A stretch of DNA of 39,451 nt from a phage. Each line of letters begins with the position of its first letter. The stretch's first letter is position 1. The translations under genes were made by a program, and so were the position numbers. This document shows positions 5,433-38,631 of this stretch, in pieces. The notes under the pieces were generated by a model, which saw only the letters and a list, made by a program, of their open reading frames with translations, did no database searches and had not been told where the DNA came from. Where the stretch lies: the sequence record PZ445455.1; one strand, written 5' to 3'.

Positions 5433-8084
5433 ATGAACACGATTAACATCGCTAAGAACGACTTCTCTGACATCGAACTGGCTGCTATCCCGTTCAATAC
5501 TCTGGCTGACCACTATGGTGAGCGTTTAGCTCGCGAACAGTTGGCCCTTGAGCATGAGTCTTACGAAATGGGTGAAGCACGCTTCCGCAAGATGTTTGAG
5601 CGTCAACTTAAAGCTGGTGAGGTTGCGGATAACGCTGCCGCTAAGCCTCTCATTACTACACTACTCCCTAAGATGATTGCACGCATTAACGATTGGTTTG
5701 AGGAAGTGAAAGCTAAGCGCGGCAAACGCCCGACAGCCTTCCAGTTCCTGCAAGAAATCAAGCCGGAAGCTGTAGCGTACATCACCATTAAGACCACTCT
5801 GGCTTGCCTCACTAGCGTAGACAATACAACCGTTCAGGCTGTAGCGAGTGCAATCGGTCGAGCCATTGAGGATGAGGCGCGCTTCGGTCGTATCCGTGAC
5901 CTTGAAGCGAAGCACTTCAAGAAAAACGTTGAGGAACAGCTCAACAAGCGCGTGGGGCACGTCTACAAGAAAGCATTCATGCAAGTTGTCGAGGCTGACA
6001 TGCTCTCTAAGGGTCTACTAGGTGGCGAGGCGTGGTCTTCGTGGCACAAAGAGGACTCCATTCACGTTGGGGTGCGCTGCATTGAGATGCTCATTGAGTC
6101 AACTGGAATGGTTAGCTTACACCGCCAAAACGCTGGCGTAGTCGGTCAGGACTCTGAGACTATCGAACTCGCACCGGAATACGCTGAGGCTATCGCAACC
6201 CGTGCGGGTGCACTTGCTGGTATCTCTCCGATGTTCCAACCTTGCGTAGTTCCTCCTAAGCCGTGGACTGGCATTACAGGTGGTGGCTATTGGGCTAACG
6301 GTCGTCGTCCTCTGGCGCTGGTGCGTACCCACAGCAAGAAAGCACTGATGCGCTACGAAGATGTTTACATGCCTGAGGTATACAAGGCGATTAACATTGC
6401 ACAAAACACCGCATGGAAAATCAACAAGAAAGTCCTAGCGGTCGCCAACGTGATAACCAAATGGAAGCACTGCCCTGTAGAGGATATACCAGCGATTGAA
6501 CGTGAAGAACTCCCGATGAAACCGGAAGACATCGACACGAATCCGGAGGCTCTCACCGCGTGGAAACGTGCCGCTGCCGCTGTGTACCGTAAGGACAAGG
6601 CTCGAAAGTCTCGCCGTATCAGTCTTGAGTTCATGCTTGAGCAAGCCAACAAGTTCGCTAACCATAAGGCCATCTGGTTCCCTTACAACATGGACTGGCG
6701 CGGTCGCGTTTACGCTGTGTCAATGTTCAACCCGCAAGGTAACGATATGACCAAGGGCCTGCTGACGCTGGCGAAAGGTAAACCAATCGGTAAGGAAGGT
6801 TACTACTGGCTGAAAATCCACGGTGCAAACTGTGCTGGTGTCGATAAGGTTCCGTTCCCTGAGCGCATCAAGTTCATTGAGGAAAACCACGAGAACATCC
6901 TAGCGTGCGCTAAGTCTCCACTGGAGAACACTTGGTGGGCTGAGCAAGATTCTCCGTTCTGCTTCCTTGCGTTCTGCTTTGAGTACGCTGGGGTACAGCA
7001 CCACGGCTTAAGCTACAACTGCTCTCTTCCGCTTGCGTTCGATGGGTCTTGCTCTGGCATTCAGCACTTCTCCGCGATGCTCCGTGATGAGGTAGGTGGT
7101 CGTGCGGTTAACTTGCTGCCTAGTGAAACCGTTCAGGACATCTACGGGATTGTCGCTAAGAAAGTCAACGAGATTCTACAAGCAGATGCAATCAACGGGA
7201 CCGACAACGAAGTGGTTACCGTGACCGATGAGAACACTGGCGAAATCTCTGAGAAAGTCAAGCTGGGCACCAAGGCGCTGGCTGGTCAATGGCTTGCTTA
7301 CGGTGTTACTCGCAGCGTGACTAAGCGTTCAGTCATGACGCTGGCTTACGGGTCCAAAGAGTTCGGCTTTCGTCAACAAGTGCTGGAAGATACCATTCAG
7401 CCAGCTATCGATTCCGGCAAGGGTCTGATGTTCACTCAACCGAATCAGGCTGCTGGATACATGGCTAAACTGATTTGGGAAGCTGTGAGCGTGACGGTGG
7501 TAGCCGCTGTGGAGGCAATGAACTGGCTTAAGTCTGCCGCTAAGCTGCTGGCTGCTGAGGTCAAAGATAGGAAGACTGGAGAGATTCTGCGCAAGCGTTG
7601 CGCTGTACATTGGGTGACTCCTGATTCCTTCCCAGTTTGGCAAGAATACAAGAAGCCAATTCAGACTCGCTTGAACCTGATGTTCCTCGGTCAGTTCCGC
7701 TTACAGCCGACCATTAACACCAACAAAGATAGCGAGATTGACGCACACAAGCAGGAGTCCGGTATAGCACCCAATTATATACACAGTATGGACGCAAACC
7801 ACCTGCGACAAACCGTGGTGTGGGCTCATGAGAAGTATGGCATCGAGTCCTTCGCACTGATTCACGACTCCTTTGGGACAATTCCTGCTGATGCTGCCAA
7901 CCTGTTCAAAGCTGTGCGCGAAACTATGGTTGACACCTATGAGTCCTGTGATGTACTGGCTGACTTCTATGACCAGTTCGCTGACCAGTTGCATGAGTCT
8001 CAATTGGATAAAATGCCAGAACTTCCTGCTAAAGGTAACTTGAACCTCCAAGACATCCTTAAGTCAGACTTCGCGTTTGCGTAA
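5433..8084 (+). CDS. 1: Single-subunit DNA-dependent RNA polymerase (gp1)
   Basis: 883 aa, near-identical to T7 RNAP including specificity loop; matches T7-type promoters in the genome. Confidence 0.98.
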   Translation: MNTINIAKNDFSDIELAAIPFNTLADHYGERLAREQLALEHESYEMGEARFRKMFERQLKAGEVADNAAAKPLITTLLPKMIARINDWFEEVKAKRGKRPTAFQFLQEIKPEAVAYITIKTTLACLTSVDNTTVQAVASAIGRAIEDEARFGRIRDLEAKHFKKNVEEQLNKRVGHVYKKAFMQVVEADMLSKGLLGGEAWSSWHKEDSIHVGVRCIEMLIESTGMVSLHRQNAGVVGQDSETIELAPEYAEAIATRAGALAGISPMFQPCVVPPKPWTGITGGGYWANGRRPLALVRTHSKKALMRYEDVYMPEVYKAINIAQNTAWKINKKVLAVANVITKWKHCPVEDIPAIEREELPMKPEDIDTNPEALTAWKRAAAAVYRKDKARKSRRISLEFMLEQANKFANHKAIWFPYNMDWRGRVYAVSMFNPQGNDMTKGLLTLAKGKPIGKEGYYWLKIHGANCAGVDKVPFPERIKFIEENHENILACAKSPLENTWWAEQDSPFCFLAFCFEYAGVQHHGLSYNCSLPLAFDGSCSGIQHFSAMLRDEVGGRAVNLLPSETVQDIYGIVAKKVNEILQADAINGTDNEVVTVTDENTGEISEKVKLGTKALAGQWLAYGVTRSVTKRSVMTLAYGSKEFGFRQQVLEDTIQPAIDSGKGLMFTQPNQAAGYMAKLIWEAVSVTVVAAVEAMNWLKSAAKLLAAEVKDRKTGEILRKRCAVHWVTPDSFPVWQEYKKPIQTRLNLMFLGQFRLQPTINTNKDSEIDAHKQESGIAPNYIHSMDANHLRQTVVWAHEKYGIESFALIHDSFGTIPADAANLFKAVRETMVDTYESCDVLADFYDQFADQLHESQLDKMPELPAKGNLNLQDILKSDFAFA

Positions 8085-8713: not shown

Positions 8714-8738
8714 CAACCAAAACATGGAGATAAACATT

Positions 8739-9755
8739 ATGATGAACATTAAGACCAACCCGTTTAAAGCAACGTCTTTCGTAGAGTCTGCCATTAAGAA
8801 GGCTCTTGATAACGCTGGGTATCTTATCGCCGACATTAAGTACGATGGTGTACGTGGGAACATCTGCGTAGACGATACTGCTAACAGTTGCTGGCTCTCT
8901 CGTGTATCTAAAACGATTCCGGCACTGGAGCACTTAAACGGATTCGATGTTCGCTGGAAGCGTCTGCTGAACGATGACCGTTGCTTCTACAAAGATGGCT
9001 TTATGCTCGATGGGGAACTCATGGTCAAGGGAGTAGACTTTAACACTGGGTCCGGCCTACTGCGTACCAAGTGGCTAAACAAGAAGAACTTTGAGTTCGA
9101 CGTTGGCGGTGTGCCACCACTTAAGGGGTCCAAGGTTGAGTTCGAGTTGGACACCAAACGTCTGAGTGTCCGACTGTACGCTATCCTCCCGCTTCACATC
9201 GTGGAGTCTGGGGAAGACCATGATGTCATGACGTTACTCATGCAGGAACACGTTAAGAACATGCTGCCTCTGCTACAGGAATACTTCCCTGAAATCGAAT
9301 GGCAAGCGGCTGAGTCTTACGAGGTTTACGACATGGTGGAACTACAGCAACTGTACGAGAAGAAGCGAGCGGAAGGCCATGAGGGTCTCATTGTGAAAGA
9401 CCCGATGTGCATCTACAAGCGCGGTAAGAAGTCCGGCTGGTTCAAGCTCAAGCCAGAGAACGAGGCTGATGGTATCATCCAAGGTGTGAATTGGGGTACA
9501 GAAGGTCTAGCCAACGAAGGTAAGGTAATAGGGTTCACGGTGCTTCTTGAGACAGGGCGTATTGTAGACGCTAACAATATCTCTCGCGCCTTAATGGACG
9601 AATTTACCGCCAACGTTAAGGAGCACGGGGAGGACTACTATAACGGATGGTCTTGCCAAGTAAATTATATGGAGGAAACAAAAGATGGAAGCCTTAGACA
9701 CCCTTCCTTCACCTGCTTCCGAGGGGTTGAGGGAAATCGTTGCGAAAAGATTTAA
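8739..9755 (+). CDS. 1.3: ATP-dependent DNA ligase (gp1.3)
   Basis: MMNIKTNPFKA...; contains KYDGVRG adenylation motif; 338 aa versus 359 in T7 (C-terminal region differs); start at ATG after ggag RBS, not the upstream in-frame ATG at 8724. Confidence 0.93.
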   Translation: MMNIKTNPFKATSFVESAIKKALDNAGYLIADIKYDGVRGNICVDDTANSCWLSRVSKTIPALEHLNGFDVRWKRLLNDDRCFYKDGFMLDGELMVKGVDFNTGSGLLRTKWLNKKNFEFDVGGVPPLKGSKVEFELDTKRLSVRLYAILPLHIVESGEDHDVMTLLMQEHVKNMLPLLQEYFPEIEWQAAESYEVYDMVELQQLYEKKRAEGHEGLIVKDPMCIYKRGKKSGWFKLKPENEADGIIQGVNWGTEGLANEGKVIGFTVLLETGRIVDANNISRALMDEFTANVKEHGEDYYNGWSCQVNYMEETKDGSLRHPSFTCFRGVEGNRCEKI

Positions 9756-10176
9756 GGTTAACAGGGAGGCTCCTAGCGGCCTCTCTCGCGTTAGCGGGAA
9801 ACCAGTCGGCTACAAGAAGTCTAGCGGATACTGGAATATCCACGTTTCCGTTAACAACAAGTCTCACCATCTACTTGCGCATAGGGTTATATGGGAACTC
9901 ACTTACGGAGAGATACCCTCTGGAATGCAGATAGACCACATTAATAGAGACAGGTCTGATAATCGCATAGAGAACCTTAGACTCGTTACTATGACAGAGA
10001 ATATGCACAATAAGGGAGACTACGTGACCAACACTACCGGTCATAAATACGTCATGTATCGTAAAGATAGGAATGCGTACATATTCAGAATAAAGCGATT
10101 TGGCAAACTACATACTTCATACCACAAGACTTTGGATGAGGCTGTGGAGGCCAAGCGGTTGTTCCTTAATCAGTAA
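9685..10176 (+). CDS. HNH endonuclease (putative homing endonuclease)
   Basis: 163 aa; HNH motif HHLLAHRVIWELTYGEIPSGMQIDHINRDRSDNRIENLRLVTMTENMHNK; ggagg RBS 9 nt upstream; overlaps ligase 3' end by 71 nt in another frame; stop abuts TE. Confidence 0.85.
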   Translation: MEALDTLPSPASEGLREIVAKRFKVNREAPSGLSRVSGKPVGYKKSSGYWNIHVSVNNKSHHLLAHRVIWELTYGEIPSGMQIDHINRDRSDNRIENLRLVTMTENMHNKGDYVTNTTGHKYVMYRKDRNAYIFRIKRFGKLHTSYHKTLDEAVEAKRLFLNQ

Positions 10177-10214
10177 CCACACTGGCTCACCTTCGGGTGG
10201 GCCTTTCTGCGTTT
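10177..10214 (+). terminator. Early terminator TE (host RNAP, rho-independent)
   Basis: ccacactggctcaccttcgggtgggcctttctgcgttt: GC stem-loop plus U-rich tract; same sequence as T7 TE. Confidence 0.85.
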
Positions 10215-10236
10215 AATACGACTCACTAAAGGAGGT
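10214..10236 (+). promoter_or_regulatory. Phage promoter phi1.5 (cactaaagg class II variant)
   Basis: taatacgactcactaaaggaggt. Confidence 0.85.
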
Positions 10237-10243
10237 ACACACC

Positions 10244-10333
10244 ATGATGTACTTAATGCCATTACTCATTGTCATCATAGGATGCCTTGCGCTCCACTAC
10301 AGCGATGACGATATGCCAGATGGTCACGCTTGA
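10244..10333 (+). CDS. 1.5: gp1.5 mini-protein (29 aa)
   Basis: MMYLMPLLIVIIGCLALHYSDDDMPDGHA; matches T7 gp1.5 with 2 substitutions. Confidence 0.75.
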   Translation: MMYLMPLLIVIIGCLALHYSDDDMPDGHA

Positions 10334-10357
10334 CAACACCCGCTAAGGAGACACCCT

Positions 10358-10474
10358 ATGATGTACTTAATGCCATTACTGATGCTATTCTTGGTGTCAT
10401 TACTCATTCTCATCCCTGTATATGCTGTACTACGTGATGATGACGATGATGACACACAAGATGACCATGCTTAA
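10358..10474 (+). CDS. Diverged tandem paralog of gp1.5 (38 aa, hydrophobic core + poly-Asp tail)
   Basis: MMYLMPLLMLFLVSLLILIPVYAVLRDDDDDDTQDDHA; first 23 nt identical to gene 1.5; own aaggagacac RBS; stop TAA inside phi1.6. Confidence 0.6.
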   Translation: MMYLMPLLMLFLVSLLILIPVYAVLRDDDDDDTQDDHA

Positions 10475-10494
10475 TACGACTCACTAAAGGAGAC
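10472..10494 (+). promoter_or_regulatory. Phage promoter phi1.6
   Basis: taatacgactcactaaaggagac. Confidence 0.85.
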
Positions 10495-10499
10495 ACTAT

Positions 10500-10760
10500 A
10501 TGTTTCGACTTCATTACAACAAAAGCATTAAGAATTTCACGGTTCGCCGTGCTGACCGTTCAATCGTATGTGCGAGCGAACGCCGAGCTAAATTACCTCT
10601 TATTGGTAACACAGTTCCTCTGGCACCGAGCGTCCACATCATTATCACCCGTGGTGACTTTGAGAAAGCAATAGACAAGAAACGTCCGGTTCTTAGTGTG
10701 GCAGTGACCCGCTTCCCGTTCGTCCGTCTGTTACTCAAACGTATCAAGGAGGTGTTCTGA
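10500..10760 (+). CDS. 1.6: gp1.6
   Basis: 86 aa [31 protein letters not shown]...; near-identical to T7 gp1.6. Confidence 0.9.
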
Positions 10761-12371: not shown

Positions 12372-12827
12372 GTGGCTGGCGCATACGCTGCGCGTGGTAT
12401 CCGAAAGGTCGGGGCATTCCGTTCCGGCCTAGAAGATAAGGTCTCTAAGCAGCTAGAGAGTAAAGGTATACAGTTTGATTACGAGCAGTGGAAGATTCCC
12501 TACGTAGTCCCTGCGAGTAATCATACCTATTGCCCAGATTTTCTACTGCCCAATGGTATCTTCATCGAGACCAAAGGGCTATGGGAAAGTGATGACCGCA
12601 AGAAGCATCTCCTGATTCGCGAGCAGATGCCTGAGCTGGATATACGACTTGTGTTCTCAAGCTCCCGCACAAAACTCTACAAAGGGTCTCCAACGTCCTA
12701 TGCAGAATTTTGTGAAAAGCACGGCATCAAGTTTGCTGATAAGCTGATTCCAGTTGAGTGGCTCAAAGAGCCTAAACGGGAGGTGCCATTCGATAAGCTC
12801 AAACAGTCAAAAGGAGCTAAGAAGTGA
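12372..12827 (+). CDS. 3: Endonuclease I (Holliday junction resolvase, gp3)
   Basis: 151 aa, GTG start immediately after 2.5 stop; near-identical to T7 gp3. Confidence 0.92.
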   Translation: MAGAYAARGIRKVGAFRSGLEDKVSKQLESKGIQFDYEQWKIPYVVPASNHTYCPDFLLPNGIFIETKGLWESDDRKKHLLIREQMPELDIRLVFSSSRTKLYKGSPTSYAEFCEKHGIKFADKLIPVEWLKEPKREVPFDKLKQSKGAKK

Positions 12828-13282
12828 TTCATCCAAAACTCTTGATAGAGCCGACCGATTCCTGTATTGAATGGACAGGCGCGTTCCACAAGAACGGGTA
12901 CGGAGTAATCTCTTTGAATCGCAAAGTGGCTGCCGAGCTAGGAATACCTAGGGTGCAATTTGTACACAGGGCAAGCTACATGCAGCATAAAGGAACTATA
13001 GGTGATGGACTTGTTGTTCGTCACTTGTGTCACAACAGAAAGTGTTTCAACCCAGCTCACTTGGAAGTCGGCACTCAGTACGATAACTTCGAAGATAGTG
13101 TTAAGGTTGGGCGCAACAAACGTAAACTGCTTGATGAGGACGTTAAATCAATTAGAGAGTCCACAATGAGTAACCGCAAGTTAGCCAAGCTATACGGTGT
13201 TAGCTCTACAACGATCTTCCACATCAAGCACAACAACAAGTGGAGGAATTTAAATGGCACGAGTACAATTCAAACAGCGTGA
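12824..13282 (+). CDS. HNH endonuclease with C-terminal helix-turn-helix (putative homing endonuclease)
   Basis: 152 aa; GTG start overlapping gene 3 stop, aaggag RBS; HNH motif VRHLCHNRKCFNPAHLEVGTQYDN; C-terminal NRKLAKLYGVSSTTIFHIKHN HTH-like; overlaps gene 3.5 start by 29 nt. Confidence 0.8.
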   Translation: MIHPKLLIEPTDSCIEWTGAFHKNGYGVISLNRKVAAELGIPRVQFVHRASYMQHKGTIGDGLVVRHLCHNRKCFNPAHLEVGTQYDNFEDSVKVGRNKRKLLDEDVKSIRESTMSNRKLAKLYGVSSTTIFHIKHNNKWRNLNGTSTIQTA

Positions 13283-32066: not shown

Positions 32067-35000
32067 ATGGATAAGTACGATAAGAACGTACCAAGTGATT
32101 ATGATGGTCTGTTCCAAAAGGCGGCTGATGCCAACGGGGTCTCTTATGACCTTTTACGTAAAGTCGCTTGGACAGAATCACGATTTGTGCCTACAGCAAA
32201 ATCTAAGACTGGACCATTAGGCATGATGCAATTTACCAAGGCAACAGCTAAGGCCCTAGGTCTGAGAGTTACCGATGGTCCAGACGACGACCGACTGAAC
32301 CCTGAGTTAGCCATCAATGCTGCCGCTAAGCACCTTGCAGGTCTGGTGGGTAAATTCGATGGTGACGAACTCAAAGCTGCCCTTGCGTACAACCAAGGCG
32401 AGGGACGCTTGGGTAATCCACAACTTGAGGCGTACTCTAGGGGAGACTTCGCATCCATCTCTGAGGAGGGGCGTAACTACATGCGTAACCTTCTGGATGT
32501 TGCCAAGTCGCCTATGGCTGGACAGTTGGAAACTTTTGGTGGCATAACCCCAAAGGGTAAAGGTATTCCGGCTGAGGTAGGATTGGCTGGAATTGGTCAC
32601 AAGCAGAAAGTAACACAGGAACTTCCTGAGTCCACAAGTTTTGACGTCAAGGGTATCGAACAGGAGGCTCCGGCGAAACCATTCGCCAAGGACTTTTGGG
32701 AGACCCACGGAGAAACACTTGACGAGTACAACAGTCGTTCAACCTTCTTCGGATTCAAAGACGCTGCCGAAGCTGAACTCTCCAACTCAGTCGCTGGAAT
32801 GGCTTTCCGTGCTGGTCGTCTCGATAATGGTTTTGATGTGTTTAAAGACACCATTACGCCGACTCGCTGGAACTCTCACATCTGGACTCCAGAAGAGTTA
32901 GAGAAGATTCGAACCGAGGTTAAGAACCCTGCGTATATCAACGTGGTAACTGGTGGTTCCCCTGAGAATCTTGACGACCTCATTAAGCTGGCTAACGATA
33001 ACTTTGAGAATGACTCACGCGCTGCCGAAGCTGGACTTGGTGCCAAACTGAGTGCTGGCGTTATTGGTGCTGGTGTGGACCCACTCAGCTATGTTCCTAT
33101 GGTCGGTGTAACTGGTAAGGGCTTTAAGTTAATCAATAAGGCTCTTGTAGTTGGTGCCGAAAGTGCTGCTCTGAACGTTGCATCCGAAGGTCTCCGCACC
33201 TCCGTAGCTGGTGGTGACGCAGACTATGCTGGTGCGGCCTTAGGTGGCTTTTTGTTTGGCGCTGGTATGTCTGCAATCAGTGACGCTGTAGCTGCTGGTC
33301 TGAAACGTAGCAAACCAGAAGCTGAGTTCGATAATGAGTTCATTGGCCCTATGATGCGATTGGAAGCCCGTGAGACAGCGCGTAACGCCAACTCTGCGGA
33401 CCTCTCTCGTATGAACACTGAGAACATGAAGTTTGAAGGTGAACATAATGGTGTCCCTTATGAGGACTTACCAACAGAGAGAGGTGCCGTGGTGTTACAT
33501 GATGGCTCCGTTCTAAGTGCAAGCAACCCAATCAACCCTAAGACTCTCCAAGAGTTCTCCGAGGTTGACCCTGAGAAGGCCGCACGAGGAATAAAACTTG
33601 CTGGGTTCACCGAGATTGGCTTGAAGACCTTGGGGTCTGACGATGCTGACATCCGTAGAGTGGCTATCGACCTCGTTCGCTCTCCTACTGGTATGCAGTC
33701 TGGTGCCTCAGGTAAGTTCGGTGCAACAGCTTCTGACATCCATGAGAGACTTCGTGGTACCGACCAGCGTACTTACAATGACCTGTACAAAGCAATGTCT
33801 GACGCTATGAAAGACCCTGAGTTCTCTACTGGCGGCGCTAAGATGTCCCGTGAAGAAACTCGCTACACTATCTACCGTAGAGCGGCACTAGCTATTGAGC
33901 GTCCAGAACTACAGAAGGTACTCACTCCGTCTGAGAGAATCGTTATGGACATCATTAAGCGTCACTTTGACACCAAGCGTGAACTCATGGAGAACCCAGC
34001 AATCTTCGGTAATACGAAGGCTGTTAGTATCTTCCCTGAGAGTCGTCACAAGGGAACATACGTTCCTCATGTTTATGACCGCCATGCTAAGGCGTTGATG
34101 ATTCAACGGTATGGTGCCGAAGGTTTACAGGAGGCCATCAAGAAGTCATGGCTAGCAAGCTATGTGTCAAGACCTGAAGTCAAGGCACGAGTGGACGAGA
34201 TGCTGGCAGGGCAGTTACGGGCATCTCAACCAACAGGTAAGACTGCGGGTACTACACCTAATAAGCACTCTTCTGTCGACACAGCCCGTTACCAGATGAA
34301 ACTGGACGATGCAGCTACACAGGCAAGTGATAAGGTATCGGAACTAAAAGACGTCCTGACCAACGCTGAGAAGCGAGTTGCGGACCGTGAAAGGAAACTC
34401 CAGAACTCCAAGGACAGACTAGCTTCGCATGAGGCTAAGCTGAAGGAGTTGGAAGAAAAACTAGCTGCTAAACCTAATAGCAAAACCCTTCCTGTTAAGA
34501 TTGAGAGCCGGAAGCAGATGATTGAGACCCAGAAGTCTCACGTCCGTATTAACACAGAGCGTCTCGACTACATGAAAGGACAGGCTGCTAGGGTCCAAGA
34601 CAGAATCACCAAAGCCGCCGCCGAAGCTGAAGCAGCCGCCTCCGCTGCCAAAGGGCAGAAGACTACTGTTGGCGGTGAGGACACTACTGCTGGTGAGGCT
34701 ATATTAGGTAACGCACCTCAATCAGTACAAGAGGTGACTATGGACATGGTCGAGAAGTACGCTATGGACAAGGCATATGGTATCTCCCACTCTGACCAGT
34801 TCTCCAACAGCTCCGTAATTGAAGAGAACATTGAGGGCCTAGTAGGTATTGAGAACAACTCGTTCCTTGAAGCCCGTAACTTGTTTGATTCTGACATATC
34901 TATCACAATGCCGGACGGACAACAGTTTGCGGTGAACGACCTAAGGGACTTCGATATGTTCCGCATCATGCCAGCGTATGACCGCCGTATCAACGGCGAC

Positions 35001-36527
35001 ATCGCCATCATGGGGTCTACCGGTAAAACCACTAAGGAACTTAAGGATGAGATTTTGGCTCTCAAAGCGAAAGCTGAGGGAGACGGTAAGAAGACAGGCG
35101 AGGTCCATGCTCTCATGGATACCATTAAGATTCTTACTGGTCGTGCTCGACGCAATCAGGACACTGTGTGGGAAACCTCACTGCGTTCCATCAATGACCT
35201 AGGGTTCTTCGCTAAGAACGCCTATATGGGTGCTCAGAACCTTACGGAGATTGCTGGGATGATTGCCACGGGTAACGTGCGTGCTCTTGGTCACGGTATC
35301 CCAATTCTACGCGATACCCTCTACAAGTCTAAACCAGTTTCCGCTAAGGAACTCAAGGAACTCCATGCGTCTCTATTCGGGAAGGAGGTGGACCAGTTGA
35401 TTCGCCCTAAACGTGCTGACATTGTGCAGCGCCTAAGGGAAGCTACTGATACCGGACCTGCTGTGGCGAACATCGTAGGGACCTTGAAGTATTCCACACA
35501 GGAACTGGCTGCTCGCTCTCCGTGGACTAAGATGCTGAACGGAACCACTAACTACCTTCTTGATGCTGCGCGTCAAGGTATGCTTGGGGACGTTATCAGT
35601 GCCACCTTAACAGGTAAGACTACCCGTTGGGAGAAAGAGGGATTCCTTCGGGGTGCCTCTGTGACCCCTGAGCAGATGGCTGGCATCAAGTCTCTCATCA
35701 AGGAACACATGGTACGCGGTGAGGACGGTAAGTTTACCGTTAAGGACAAGCAAGCGTTCTCTATGGACCCTCGCGCTATGGACTTATGGCGACTTGCTGA
35801 CAAGGTAGCTGATGAGGCAATGCTGCGTCCGCATAAGGTGTCCTTACAGGATTCCCATGCGTTCGGGGCATTAGGGAAGATGGTCATGCAGTTTAAGTCC
35901 TTCACTATCAAATCCCTTAACTCTAAGTTCCTGCGAACCTTCTACGACGGGTACAAGAACAACCGAGCGATTGACGCTGCGCTGACTGGCATTATCTCTA
36001 TGGGTCTCGCTGGTGGTTACTACGCTATGGCTGCACACGTCAAAGCGTATGGAATGCCTAAGGAGAAACGTAAAGAATACTTGGAGCGTGCATTGGACCC
36101 AACCATGATTGCCCATGCTTCGTTGTCTCGTAGTTCTCAATTGGGCGCTCCTTTGGCTATGGCTGACCTAGTTGGCGGTGTCTTAGGGTTCGAGTCCTCC
36201 AAGATGGCTCGCTCTACGATTCTACCTAAGGACACCATGAAGGAACGTGACCCAAACAAACCGTACACCTCAAGAGAGGTAATGGGAGCTATGGGTTCGA
36301 ACCTTCTGGAGCAGATGCCTTCCGCTGGCTTTGTGGCTAACGTAGGGGCTACCTTAATGAATGCTGCTGGTGTGGTTAATTCACCTAACAAGGCAACCGA
36401 GCAGGACTTCATGACTGGCTTGATGAACTCTACCAAAGAGTTGGTCCCTAACGACCCTCTTACTCAACAGCTTGTTATGAAAATTTATGAGGCCAATGGT
36501 GTTAACTTGAGGGAGCGTCGGAAATAA
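32067..36527 (+). CDS. 16: Internal core / ejection protein gp16 with N-terminal lytic transglycosylase domain; contains about 175-aa insertion
   Basis: 1486 aa versus 1318 in T7; N-terminal transglycosylase region (TESRF...GPLGMMQFTKAT) and rest collinear with T7 gp16 except segment 34206-34730. Confidence 0.95.
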   Translation: MDKYDKNVPSDYDGLFQKAADANGVSYDLLRKVAWTESRFVPTAKSKTGPLGMMQFTKATAKALGLRVTDGPDDDRLNPELAINAAAKHLAGLVGKFDGDELKAALAYNQGEGRLGNPQLEAYSRGDFASISEEGRNYMRNLLDVAKSPMAGQLETFGGITPKGKGIPAEVGLAGIGHKQKVTQELPESTSFDVKGIEQEAPAKPFAKDFWETHGETLDEYNSRSTFFGFKDAAEAELSNSVAGMAFRAGRLDNGFDVFKDTITPTRWNSHIWTPEELEKIRTEVKNPAYINVVTGGSPENLDDLIKLANDNFENDSRAAEAGLGAKLSAGVIGAGVDPLSYVPMVGVTGKGFKLINKALVVGAESAALNVASEGLRTSVAGGDADYAGAALGGFLFGAGMSAISDAVAAGLKRSKPEAEFDNEFIGPMMRLEARETARNANSADLSRMNTENMKFEGEHNGVPYEDLPTERGAVVLHDGSVLSASNPINPKTLQEFSEVDPEKAARGIKLAGFTEIGLKTLGSDDADIRRVAIDLVRSPTGMQSGASGKFGATASDIHERLRGTDQRTYNDLYKAMSDAMKDPEFSTGGAKMSREETRYTIYRRAALAIERPELQKVLTPSERIVMDIIKRHFDTKRELMENPAIFGNTKAVSIFPESRHKGTYVPHVYDRHAKALMIQRYGAEGLQEAIKKSWLASYVSRPEVKARVDEMLAGQLRASQPTGKTAGTTPNKHSSVDTARYQMKLDDAATQASDKVSELKDVLTNAEKRVADRERKLQNSKDRLASHEAKLKELEEKLAAKPNSKTLPVKIESRKQMIETQKSHVRINTERLDYMKGQAARVQDRITKAAAEAEAAASAAKGQKTTVGGEDTTAGEAILGNAPQSVQEVTMDMVEKYAMDKAYGISHSDQFSNSSVIEENIEGLVGIENNSFLEARNLFDSDISITMPDGQQFAVNDLRDFDMFRIMPAYDRRINGDIAIMGSTGKTTKELKDEILALKAKAEGDGKKTGEVHALMDTIKILTGRARRNQDTVWETSLRSINDLGFFAKNAYMGAQNLTEIAGMIATGNVRALGHGIPILRDTLYKSKPVSAKELKELHASLFGKEVDQLIRPKRADIVQRLREATDTGPAVANIVGTLKYSTQELAARSPWTKMLNGTTNYLLDAARQGMLGDVISATLTGKTTRWEKEGFLRGASVTPEQMAGIKSLIKEHMVRGEDGKFTVKDKQAFSMDPRAMDLWRLADKVADEAMLRPHKVSLQDSHAFGALGKMVMQFKSFTIKSLNSKFLRTFYDGYKNNRAIDAALTGIISMGLAGGYYAMAAHVKAYGMPKEKRKEYLERALDPTMIAHASLSRSSQLGAPLAMADLVGGVLGFESSKMARSTILPKDTMKERDPNKPYTSREVMGAMGSNLLEQMPSAGFVANVGATLMNAAGVVNSPNKATEQDFMTGLMNSTKELVPNDPLTQQLVMKIYEANGVNLRERRK

Positions 36528-36599: not shown

Positions 36600-38399
36600 A
36601 TGGCTAACGTAATTAAAACCGTTTTGACTTACCAGTTAGATGGCTCCAATCGTGATTTTAATATCCCGTTTGAGTATCTAGCCCGTAAGTTCGTAGTGGT
36701 AACTCTTATTGGTGTAGACCGCAAGGTCCTTACGATTAATACAGACTACCGTTTTGCTACGCGTACTACCATCTCACTGACCAAGGCTTGGGGTCCGGCA
36801 GATGGCTACACTACCATCGAGTTACGTCGAGTAACCTCCACGACCGACCGCTTGGTTGACTTTACGGACGGCTCAATCCTCCGTGCGTATGACCTTAACG
36901 TTGCTCAGATTCAAACGATGCACGTAGCAGAAGAGGCCCGTGACCTAACTGCCGATACTATCGGTGTCAATAATGATGGTCACTTGGATGCGCGCGGTCG
37001 TCGAATTGTCAACCTAGCGAACGCCGTGGATGACCGTGATGCTGTTCCGTTTGGTCAACTTAAGACCATGAACCAGAACTCGTGGCAAGCACGTAATGAG
37101 GCCCTTCAGTTCCGTAATGAGGCTGAGACTTTCAGAAATCAAGCGGAGGGCTTTAAAACTGAGTCAGGTGCTAATGCTACTAATACGAAGCAGTGGCGTG
37201 ATGATGCTAAGGGGTTCCGAGATGAAGCCGAGCAGTTCAAGAATACGGCTGGTCAATATGCTACATCTGCTGGGAACTCTGCTACTGCTGCGCATCAATC
37301 TGAGGTAAACGCTGAGAACTCTGCCACAGCATCCGCTAACTCTGCCCATTCGGCAGAACAGCAAGCAGACCGCGCTAAGAGCGAGGCTGATAAGCTGGCG
37401 AATAATAATGCGTTCGCGGGGACGCTACACTCTATAACCCCAGATAACCCTGCTGTAATGGGCTCAGGTACTGTTACCTTCAAGTCGTCCTATGCGGTGA
37501 ATGCTCCAATACTTAGGGCGACAAAAGGTGGCATGTCTCTGGGGAGCGATAGAGTTGATGGAGATGGTACCTCCACGTTCATCAACTTCTACAAAGACTC
37601 TAGAAACACTGTAGGTAGTATTCAAGTAGGAGATGACGGCACATTCACCATAAATTCCAACGGCTGGACGAAACTCGCTGGCAGCGTCACACAGGTGAAC
37701 CAGCTGCGTTCTGGATACTCAGAGGTTACAGTAAACAACAACAATGTAGCCGTCCACGCCAGAGCAACAAATCTCAGTTGGGATGATGGTCAGACAAACG
37801 CAGTATATAACAGATACACGATTGCAGGACGAGGGTCTAGCGTCGAAGGGGTAGATGGAGCGATAATGGATTTTGGCATACGAGAGATAGTAGGTAACAG
37901 GTATGAGGCATATATGTGGGTAGCAGGCTTTGGTAGATCAGCTGTGTGGACATTTGGTCATACTGGCACGTTCACCAGCCCAGCCGATATAGTAGCCAAC
38001 GGGTCGTTAGTCGCTGGTAACAGTCTACGTATTGGGACATGTACCCACGCTTCCGATGGCAACATTTTTGGCTCTATCTGGGGTAACGATTGGTTAAGCA
38101 ATTACCTAAACAGGTCGTTTAAAAGGAAAACCAAAGAATGGACTTCGGTGTGGAATGGGAGAATAGGTGCTGGAGGTGTAGCATGGCTGACCCAAGATGT
38201 ACGTTTTAGAACCATTTGGATACGCACAGAGGCCCGGCCTTCTACGTGGACGCCAATTCAACTGGGCCCTGATGGGATGTACATGGCGCGACCTGACCCT
38301 GGCTGGATTCGGTTCACACTGGCTAACAATGGTACGTCCATAACCAACAACCAAGATGATAACTCTGTTCCTATCGAGATTGCCGTAGAGAATGAGTAA
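36600..38399 (+). CDS. 17: Tail fiber protein gp17 with divergent distal (receptor-binding) domain
   Basis: 599 aa; first about 260 aa near-identical to T7 gp17; remainder divergent but retains scattered gp17 tip motifs and C-terminal ...VENE. Confidence 0.93.
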   Translation: MANVIKTVLTYQLDGSNRDFNIPFEYLARKFVVVTLIGVDRKVLTINTDYRFATRTTISLTKAWGPADGYTTIELRRVTSTTDRLVDFTDGSILRAYDLNVAQIQTMHVAEEARDLTADTIGVNNDGHLDARGRRIVNLANAVDDRDAVPFGQLKTMNQNSWQARNEALQFRNEAETFRNQAEGFKTESGANATNTKQWRDDAKGFRDEAEQFKNTAGQYATSAGNSATAAHQSEVNAENSATASANSAHSAEQQADRAKSEADKLANNNAFAGTLHSITPDNPAVMGSGTVTFKSSYAVNAPILRATKGGMSLGSDRVDGDGTSTFINFYKDSRNTVGSIQVGDDGTFTINSNGWTKLAGSVTQVNQLRSGYSEVTVNNNNVAVHARATNLSWDDGQTNAVYNRYTIAGRGSSVEGVDGAIMDFGIREIVGNRYEAYMWVAGFGRSAVWTFGHTGTFTSPADIVANGSLVAGNSLRIGTCTHASDGNIFGSIWGNDWLSNYLNRSFKRKTKEWTSVWNGRIGAGGVAWLTQDVRFRTIWIRTEARPSTWTPIQLGPDGMYMARPDPGWIRFTLANNGTSITNNQDDNSVPIEIAVENE

Positions 38400-38427
38400 T
38401 CATTCACGTAAACCTTAGGAGGACAGT

Positions 38428-38631
38428 ATGTTAAGCCTAGACTTTAACAACGAAGTCATAAAGGCGGCTCCGATTGCGGGTACTGCGGTTACTGATGTGG
38501 CTACCCGCTACTTCTTCGGATTGTCGTTAAACGAATGGTTCTATGTTGCTGCTATCGCCTACACAGTAGTTCAGATTGGTGCTAAGGTAGTCGATAAAGT
38601 GATTGATTGGAAGAAAGCCAATAAGGAGTAG
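38428..38631 (+). CDS. 17.5: Holin (gp17.5)
   Basis: 67 aa MLSLDFNNEVIKAAPIAGTAVTDVATRYFFGLSLNEWFYVAAIAYTVVQIGAKVVDKVIDWKKANKE; matches T7 holin. Confidence 0.9.
   Translation: MLSLDFNNEVIKAAPIAGTAVTDVATRYFFGLSLNEWFYVAAIAYTVVQIGAKVVDKVIDWKKANKE

Follow-up and report, generated by a model that had tools for sequence, protein, structure and literature searches.

The genome of a T7-like phage (Teseptimavirus; sequence record PZ445455.1, 39,451 nucleotides (nt), analysed over its whole length and called the window here) carries two small open reading frames (ORFs) in the slot that T7 fills with the single gene 1.5. The first, ORF-A, is an orthodox gp1.5 and the second, ORF-B, is, as judged from sequence comparison, a diverged paralogue of it. 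We propose that ORF-B arose by duplication, is cotranscribed with ORF-A and is translated into a single-pass inner-membrane micro-protein, a statement to which, taken as a whole, we assign a probability of about 0.55. Its parts differ in strength: an origin by promoter-bounded tandem duplication is very probable, and translation into a peptide that is kept by selection is favored by a slight balance of the evidence. The window is approximately 92-93% identical over 25 kb to T7, Bas103, Bas104 and Bas64. The elements composing the locus are the following.

10214-10236, plus strand: T7 RNA polymerase promoter phi1.5, TAATACGACTCACTAAAGGAGGT, exact core, identical to the annotated phi1.5 of T7 and 13a
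10244-10333, plus strand: ORF-A, 29 amino acids (aa), peptide MMYLMPLLIVIIGCLALHYSDDDMPDGHA, stop codon TGA, match to phrog_12128 (E = 6.8e-22)
10331-10353, plus strand: decayed promoter copy TGACAACACCCGCTAAGGAGACA, recognized by alignment with the T7 phi1.6 junction
10358-10474, plus strand: ORF-B, 38 aa, peptide MMYLMPLLMLFLVSLLILIPVYAVLRDDDDDDTQDDHA
10358-10381, plus strand: ORF-B codons 1-8, MMYLMPLL, identical to ORF-A codons 1-8 at 23 of 24 nt
10382-10405, plus strand: ORF-B codons 9-16, MLFLVSLL, an inserted unit, absent in ORF-A, which repeats codons 1-8 in tandem and in frame
10406-10435, plus strand: ORF-B codons 17-26, ILIPVYAVLR, diverged counterpart of ORF-A codons 9-18, IVIIGCLALH
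10436-10453, plus strand: poly-Asp tract, two copies of the 9-nt unit GATGATGAC (DDD twice), a perfect tandem repeat (Tandem Repeats Finder, 100%)
10454-10474, plus strand: ORF-B tail TQDDHA and stop; phi1.6 begins with this TAA, as it does behind a single-copy gene 1.5
10472-10494, plus strand: T7 RNA polymerase promoter phi1.6, TAATACGACTCACTAAAGGAGAC, exact core

A preliminary description of this DNA, made from the letters alone, had recognized two consecutive ORFs of 29 and 38 aa with the same first 23 nt and an acidic ..D.HA tail, the first keeping the phi1.5 junction and the second the phi1.6 junction with a promoter-like remnant between them, and had read them as a tandem duplication of gene 1.5. 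The coordinates and content of both ORFs were confirmed, the tails being DDDMPDGHA in ORF-A and TQDDHA in ORF-B, and the exact promoter cores begin at 10214 and 10472. The gene order of the window is ligase, an HNH ORF, the early terminator TE, phi1.5, ORF-A, a 24-nt spacer, ORF-B, phi1.6 and gene 1.6. The T7 reference (V01146 / NC_001604) has TE, gene 1.4, phi1.5, a single gene 1.5 (7791-7880), phi1.6 and gene 1.6, and in its single gene 1.5 and upstream gene 1.4 it agrees with the same description. Gene 1.4 is indeed missing from the window according to both the junction alignment and a tblastn comparison of gp1.4 with the window, which found no match. The two units of the window are collinear: each runs from a promoter or its remnant through a Shine-Dalgarno sequence, the identical 23 nt (10244-10266 in ORF-A, 10358-10380 in ORF-B), a hydrophobic body and an Asp run to a ..D.HA-stop end leading into a promoter, and the unit starts lie 114 nt apart. 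phi1.5 and phi1.6 form an exact 22-nt repeat 258 nt apart, which places a direct repeat at both outer ends, at 10214 and 10472, with a degenerate third copy at the junction. By our own arithmetic, an exact 23-mer repeat in 39 kb has a chance expectation of about 1e-5.

ORF-A is a real gene of the gp1.5 family (phrog_12128). Its product is 93% identical to T7 gp1.5 and consists of a 17-residue hydrophobic N-terminus followed by the acidic tail. Among gp1.5 orthologues, down to 81% nt identity, the ratio of non-synonymous to synonymous divergence (pN/pS) is 0.05-0.26 and the changes are overwhelmingly synonymous or conservative; strong purifying selection acts on gp1.5 among T7-like phages. A single positional equivalent with the same plan was found in seven genera of the Studiervirinae, with one small ORF in the slot in T3, Serratia phage 2050H2 (Teetrevirus), 285P (Berlinvirus), Yersinia phage AKS2022, fPS-54-ocr (Helsettvirus), K5-4 (Przondovirus) and PP81 (Pektosvirus). 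These equivalents follow the first phage promoter after TE and precede gene 1.6, measure 25-29 aa and present 16-20 hydrophobic residues from residue 1 onwards, then D/N-D/E and an x-P-x motif; the peptide of T3 and 2050H2 is MWLILFAIVATLGLMVADDNIWPDC. The acidic stretch with a C-terminal x-Pro-(Asp/Asn/Lys/Ser) motif is present in T7, T3, 285P, fPS-54-ocr, K5-4 and PP81. Pfam returned no family for the ORF-A or the ORF-B peptide. A lipoprotein nature, considered on account of the I-I-G-C sequence at residues 11-14 of ORF-A, was rejected for both peptides: this Cys is not conserved, being Tyr in two orthologues and absent in T3-type peptides, ORF-B is cysteine-free and a basic N-region is lacking.

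The preliminary description had also called the second copy a longer hydrophobic peptide with a poly-Asp tail, and this added length can be traced to internal repeats nested within the duplication. The MLFLVSLL unit is identical to ORF-B codons 1-8 at 17 of 24 nt and to ORF-A codons 1-8 at 18 of 24, to be compared with a maximum of 14 of 24 among 99 hydrophobic octapeptide-coding windows of the genome, and a repeat search returned it as a third copy of the 5'-end repeat family with a spacing of 24. The codons for ILIPVYAVLR and IVIIGCLALH match without gaps at 16 of 30 nt (null maximum 15 in 87 windows); over the body of the two ORFs pS is 0.60 and pN 0.42, and the residues YS that follow IVIIGCLALH in ORF-A have no counterpart in ORF-B. 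ORF-A has one DDD unit and ORF-B two, with a further GATGAT in Bas104. Beyond the Asp run, MPDGHA of ORF-A aligns to TQDDHA of ORF-B, and the corresponding tail in phage PDP351P2, another carrier of the pair, is TQDGHA, matching the PDGHA of ORF-A. Aligned by hhalign, the ORF-B profile matches the gp1.5 profile with a probability of 96.8% (E = 2e-10) and an 8-residue gap just after MMYLMPLL, the place of the inserted unit.

ORF-B thus shares with T7 gp1.5 its first eight residues, the ..D.HA end, the stop inside phi1.6, the plan of a helix followed by an acidic tail and the genomic slot, ending just before gene 1.6. It differs from it by its 38 aa, a hydrophobic run of 25 residues instead of 17, six to eight consecutive Asp residues and the lack of both the M/W-P-D motif and the Gly-Cys pair; an example of its core sequence is TTGGTGTCATTACTCATTCTCATCC. 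It also falls outside the size range of the family, whose hydrophobic runs measure 16-20 residues: the other Studiervirinae equivalents are always single copy and none has a helix of the length of ORF-B or a poly-Asp stretch. Weak matches of ORF-B to two PHROG families of unknown function (phrog_7843 and phrog_30457) were treated as compositional.

The two-ORF arrangement is not unique to the window. Seven genomes carry it with the same junction: the window, five GenBank phage records, namely Bas64 (JeanTinguely), Bas103, Bas104, SYGE1 and PDP351P2, and a 39.7-kb Logan contig from run ERR9710127. Since six other public sequences possess the pair, it is a trait of a lineage and not a peculiarity of the window. 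Both ORFs are annotated as "hypothetical protein" in Bas64, Bas103 and Bas104 and only ORF-B is annotated in SYGE1; the PDP351P2 record is unannotated. The carriers were isolated in Switzerland, China and elsewhere. GenBank phages were searched for gene 1.5 and ORF-B by blastn at 'distant' sensitivity: all 174 Teseptimavirus records matching the gene 1.5 query have one gp1.5-like place, and five of them have ORF-B as well. In IMG/VR, the gene 1.5 pattern has a single match in each of eight contigs, of which at least seven are T7-like phages with one gene 1.5. Patterns specific for ORF-B found no match in IMG/VR or in the Joint Genome Institute (JGI) metagenomes, and a degenerate pattern found none in IMG/VR. 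A tblastn search of the phage collection with the 38-aa peptide gave no match either, probably an effect of the low-complexity filter. A profile of six ORF-B sequences run against a collection of 5.8 billion proteins retrieved one protein of 37 aa, from the Logan contig, and a HMMER scan of 1.84 billion cluster representatives retrieved the same single protein. A literature search returned no description of a duplicated gene 1.5. All carriers share one decayed junction, which points to a single old event, and none of the 174 records has an intact middle promoter or near-identical copies. In a tree of gene 1.6 the carriers are interspersed with single-copy phages, at a resolution too poor to judge whether they are monophyletic.

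The junction preserves the trace of the lost promoter. At phi1.5, transcription starts at G 10231 and the transcribed GGAGG doubles as the Shine-Dalgarno sequence of ORF-A. Where ORF-A ends, the sequence of single-copy phages is CACGCT-TAATACGACTCACTAAAGGAGACAC, with the stop TAA beginning phi1.6; at this point it is CACGCT-TGACGACACC(A)ACTAAGGAGATAC in the six sister genomes and CACGCT-TGACAACACCCGCTAAGGAGACAC in the window. The remnant of the sister genomes, TGACGACACCACTAAGGAG, is nearer to a promoter sequence than that of the window. The stretch between the two ORFs of the window retains CTAAGGAGACAC, and it contains no ungapped 23-mer within six mismatches of the T7 promoter consensus. 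The Shine-Dalgarno sequence AAGGAG (10345-10350), 7 nt before the ATG of ORF-B, and CTAAGGAGA are invariant in all seven genomes; the upstream part of the dead promoter is variable. Read in this way, the junction is a recognizable promoter whose AT-rich and specificity-loop contact regions, by which the polymerase binds, have been destroyed and whose ribosome-binding site has been kept.

From these elements a history can be proposed. A cassette of about 115 bp, comprising a class II promoter with its Shine-Dalgarno sequence and gene 1.5, would have been duplicated head to tail, most likely by unequal recombination between the near-identical promoter/leader repeats of phi1.5 and phi1.6. The middle promoter would have been inactivated through small deletions and substitutions, with the ribosome-binding site retained. 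In the second copy, the first eight codons (24 nt) would have been repeated in tandem and in frame, the 9-nt Asp-Asp-Asp unit doubled, many substitutions accumulated and the x-Pro-Asp motif of the family lost. Duplication of promoter-bearing segments under selection is documented for T7 populations (PMC6171733), and the structure of the pair is that expected from an unequal exchange between repeated promoters; it differs from the rearrangements of evolved T7 in that the duplicated segment has a diverged coding sequence and the redundant promoter was lost, not exploited. A lineage keeping both the original and the remodelled copy offers a compact example of the birth and reshaping of a micro-protein gene, through promoter-bounded duplication, promoter decay, lengthening of a helix by eight codons and growth of a tail by slippage of triplet units, and this history is legible in unusual detail for a gene so small.

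The leader of gene 1.4 in T7 presents a comparable picture. This leader (T7 7588-7630) reads GCGTTTA joined to TAAGGAGACACTTTATGTTT and resembles a promoter/leader of the phi1.6 type from which the core ATACGACTCAC has been deleted. Upstream of gp1.4, where TTTA abuts TAAGGAGACACTTTATG, the promoter core was apparently deleted and the Shine-Dalgarno sequence kept, as before ORF-B. This recurrence of the dead-promoter pattern suggests that class II promoter/leader cassettes serve as recombination joints for the small ORFs of the array. Gene 1.4 is itself variably present, in T7, Bas103, Bas104 and 04922B and not in the window or 13a, and its product (51 aa, DUF5464) is likewise a small hydrophobic protein encoded in the same intergenic array. 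It differs from ORF-B in its net charge of +3, its two hydrophobic stretches and the absence of an acidic tail; a relationship between the two, compared by eye only, was rejected because of this opposite charge and different plan.

Several observations weigh against the reading of ORF-B as a duplicate that is made and kept. Some concern its origin. The leader of ORF-B has the 7-nt spacing of the phi1.6 type and not the 9 nt of phi1.5, which blurs the exact point of crossover. The synonymous divergence between the bodies of the two copies, about 0.6, is on the scale of the whole genus, and their first 24 nt are near-identical, a pattern that a simple recent duplication in situ does not explain. 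It favors a rival origin in which two already diverged alleles of gene 1.5, from different T7-like phages, would have been joined in a mixed infection by recombination between phi1.6 of one genome and phi1.5 of the other, ORF-B then being an old allele of an unsampled lineage. The most distant gp1.5 orthologues of Teseptimavirus differ by a similar amount (0.5-0.66); near-identity persists at the 5' end and at the promoter-linked 3' end despite the divergence of the body; none of the 174 records shows an intermediate stage, be it an intact middle promoter or a second copy with light divergence; and the interspersion of the carriers in the poorly resolved gene 1.6 tree suggests that the module moves by recombination. 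Nevertheless, an ORF-B-like gene as sole copy was found neither in GenBank phages, IMG/VR and JGI metagenomes nor among the 5.8 billion proteins and 1.84 billion representatives, the gp1.5 of all sampled genera is of the short-anchored kind with 25-29 aa, the most divergent features of ORF-B can be traced to internal repeats made of gp1.5-type sequence, and the divergence estimates come from only about 8 synonymous sites. We consider such an import unlikely; it bears on the origin only and is compatible with a functional ORF-B.

The other adverse observations concern expression and function. ORF-B does not match the phrog_12128 hidden Markov model (HMM) at E <= 1 and its tail, DDDDDDTQDDHA, is proline-free, the conserved Pro motif of the family being lost; since both are gone, ORF-B may have lost the ancestral function and gained none. 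Its tail has accumulated the non-synonymous changes R26C, D30Y, D32G, Q34stop (in SYGE1) and D36G as well as an insertion of two Asp residues in Bas104, and this acidic tail looks loosely constrained; in PDP351P2 a proline replaces a leucine within the helix (L7P). The tests of selection on ORF-B are marginally significant and count few events (14-15), and a literature search returned no ribosome-profiling or proteomic data for either peptide. Together with the rarity of ORF-B, confined to five of the 174 GenBank Teseptimavirus records, the window and one Logan contig and without an exact-pattern match in IMG/VR or JGI, the lost motif and model match, the variable tail, L7P and the marginal selection tests fit the explanation that ORF-B is a decaying, functionless by-product of recombination between promoters, a redundant copy that has drifted, translated or not, and survives only for being small and nearly neutral.

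Other features of the same seven genomes speak for retention. The ORF-B frame is open in all of them and the sole indel is in frame. Codons 11-23 show zero changes and codon 10 one synonymous change. The hydrophobic core underwent 4 synonymous and 3 non-synonymous events, for a neutral expectation of 1:3.2 (one-sided p = 0.06), in genomes that differ by 5-8% elsewhere. The tail underwent approximately 2.5 synonymous and 5 non-synonymous events, and ORF-B as a whole 8 non-synonymous and about 6.5 synonymous events for a neutral ratio of 3.7:1 (p ~0.03-0.06). The Shine-Dalgarno sequence and the start codon are invariant beside a decayed promoter, and the product is still a clean helix with an acidic tail and not a frameshifted or stop-riddled remnant. 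Moreover, exact direct repeats of 21-26 nt flank the ORF-B segment, with mostly 18-23 nt at the 5' ends of the ORFs. T7 readily deletes across such direct repeats, and a neutral insert between them should be lost quickly from a streamlined, highly recombinogenic phage; the persistence of ORF-B at this place suggests that it is probably expressed and kept. On these grounds we regard the by-product explanation as somewhat unlikely and lean slightly towards a translated, selected peptide.

The segment could alternatively act as DNA or RNA, by spacing promoters, by a structure on the phi1.5 transcript or by a fusion of ORF-A and ORF-B through stop read-through, which we judge very improbable. The phi1.5 transcript of the window does fold somewhat better than shuffled controls (z = -2.3) and the start region of ORF-B can pair with ORF-A codons 10-14. 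An RNA element was rejected all the same: the 85 predicted pairs show no compensatory change, hence no covariation, across the seven genomes, the consensus fold differs from that of the window, gp1.5 orthologues are essentially without a common structure (alifold -3.3 kcal/mol) and Rfam gives no match. A mere spacer agrees poorly with the overwhelmingly synonymous substitutions of gp1.5, which are those expected for a peptide. UGA followed by C is a leaky termination context. It closes ORF-A in seven of seven genomes, and in the window and SYGE1 the two ORFs share one frame, which no further stop interrupts before ORF-B. However, ORF-B lies in a different frame from ORF-A in the other five, so a read-through fusion is not conserved and was rejected.

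A side observation on pairing can be added here. The Ile/Val/Leu codons of the hydrophobic cores (GTCATCAT...) and the Asp codons of the tails (ATGATGAC...) are almost reverse complementary to each other, which gives potential long hairpins between 10266-10278 and 10437-10449 and, within ORF-B, between 10391-10415 and 10436-10460. They show no covariation and are probably a side effect of codon complementarity.

The two peptides differ in their predicted properties. From ORF-A to ORF-B, the uninterrupted hydrophobic (uncharged) run increases from 17 to 25 residues and the net charge passes from -4 to -7. The best 19-mer of ORF-B has a summed apparent insertion energy of approximately -3.1 kcal/mol, compared with +1.2 for ORF-A, and AlphaFold2 models ORF-B as one helix over residues 4-29 with a mean pLDDT (predicted local distance difference test) score of 79. 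ORF-B is most likely a cotranscribed and translated single-pass membrane micro-protein. In the mechanism that we envisage, ORF-A and ORF-B would be the two leading cistrons of a transcript that the T7 RNA polymerase starts at phi1.5, and also at class II promoters lying further upstream, and that runs into genes 1.6 and 1.7, and each ORF would be translated from its own strong Shine-Dalgarno sequence. ORF-A would yield the usual short-anchored gp1.5 with its 17 hydrophobic residues and ORF-B a full-length transmembrane helix of 25 residues with a strongly acidic tail, net charge -7. The latter peptide would reside in the inner membrane and act through helix-helix contact with a membrane protein of the host or the phage. 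MgtS, AcrZ and CydX, small bacterial proteins that cross the membrane once, modulate larger membrane proteins. ORF-B resembles them in size (approximately 30-50 aa), in its one predicted transmembrane helix and in its short charged tail; there is no sequence relationship and the analogy is one of mechanism only, which makes an action by helix-helix binding plausible.

The gp1.5 protein is one of the last T7 ORF products without an assigned function, and published selection and expression experiments connect it with ligase dependence and with the physiology of the stringent response. In ligase-deleted T7 and T3 propagated on a ligase-deficient host, gene 1.5 knock-outs (a nonsense mutation and deletions) were repeatedly selected (PMC2696425). 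That a nonsense mutation was among them indicates that the gp1.5 peptide itself is made and matters, and its authors interpreted the loss of gene 1.5 as pointing to a conserved role linked to DNA metabolism (PMC2696425). When 53 T7 genes were screened, expression of gp1.5 inhibited growth in minimal medium, and gp1.5 was among four proteins whose toxic effect stringent-like RNA polymerase alleles relieve; two-hybrid assays of T7 gp1.5 with RelA, SpoT and RpoZ gave no consistent interaction (PMC13483052). One may imagine that ORF-B is a neofunctionalized partner or antagonist of gp1.5, both forming a two-component membrane module, one peptide with the short original anchor and the other with a full-span helix and a poly-Asp tail. 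This module would tune the host-directed activity of gp1.5, whose loss is advantageous to ligase-deficient T7 and T3 and whose toxicity the stringent-like alleles relieve, a proposal that we hold to be quite doubtful. If it were true, the carriers Bas64, Bas103 and Bas104, which belong to the BASEL phage collection, would constitute a ready genetic handle on the gp1.5 family, which is conserved throughout the Studiervirinae. The pair in any case offers matched natural variants with which to probe the role of gp1.5. Its practical weight is limited: it is a modest evolutionary curiosity, the arrangement is already public though undescribed, and there is little in it to surprise a T7 specialist.

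The neighborhood of the pair comprises the following features.

8724-9755: ligase gene
9685-10176, plus strand: HNH_3 homing-endonuclease ORF, 163 aa (Pfam HNH_3, E = 2e-23)
approximately 10184-10213, plus strand: TE, early terminator for the host RNA polymerase, stem GGCTCACC/GGTGGGCC followed by a T-rich tail
10500-10760: gene 1.6 (BC10 family), located after phi1.6

The DNA ligase gene carries the HNH_3 ORF as an insertion at its 3' end, with an overlap of about 70 nt, and the ligase C-terminus is altered compared with T7. This ORF fills the space upstream of TE and belongs to the context, outside the duplication. Bas64 has an HNH gene at the same site, 46% identical to that of the window, but no TE behind it. 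Between 9608 and 10443 the window has no match to T7 among pieces of at least 150 nt. The TE stretch aligns base for base with the T7 region annotated as TE; a simple terminator scan does not call it.

Elsewhere, the window is circularly permuted and starts in gene 19, its positions 1-2573 corresponding to T7 37370-39937. In the tail-fibre gene region, the distal part (37411-38437) is without a T7 match, which is consistent with a different receptor-binding domain. An ORF of 152 aa with HNH-like sequence (12824-13282) is located between gene 3 (endonuclease I) and gene 3.5 (lysozyme), in a stretch likewise without a T7 match. Finally, the gp16 homologue (32067-36527) measures 1486 aa, compared with about 1318 aa in T7, and contains an insert of approximately 540 nt (about 34205-34742), absent in T7, that encodes a Lys/Ala/Glu-rich segment of coiled-coil appearance.

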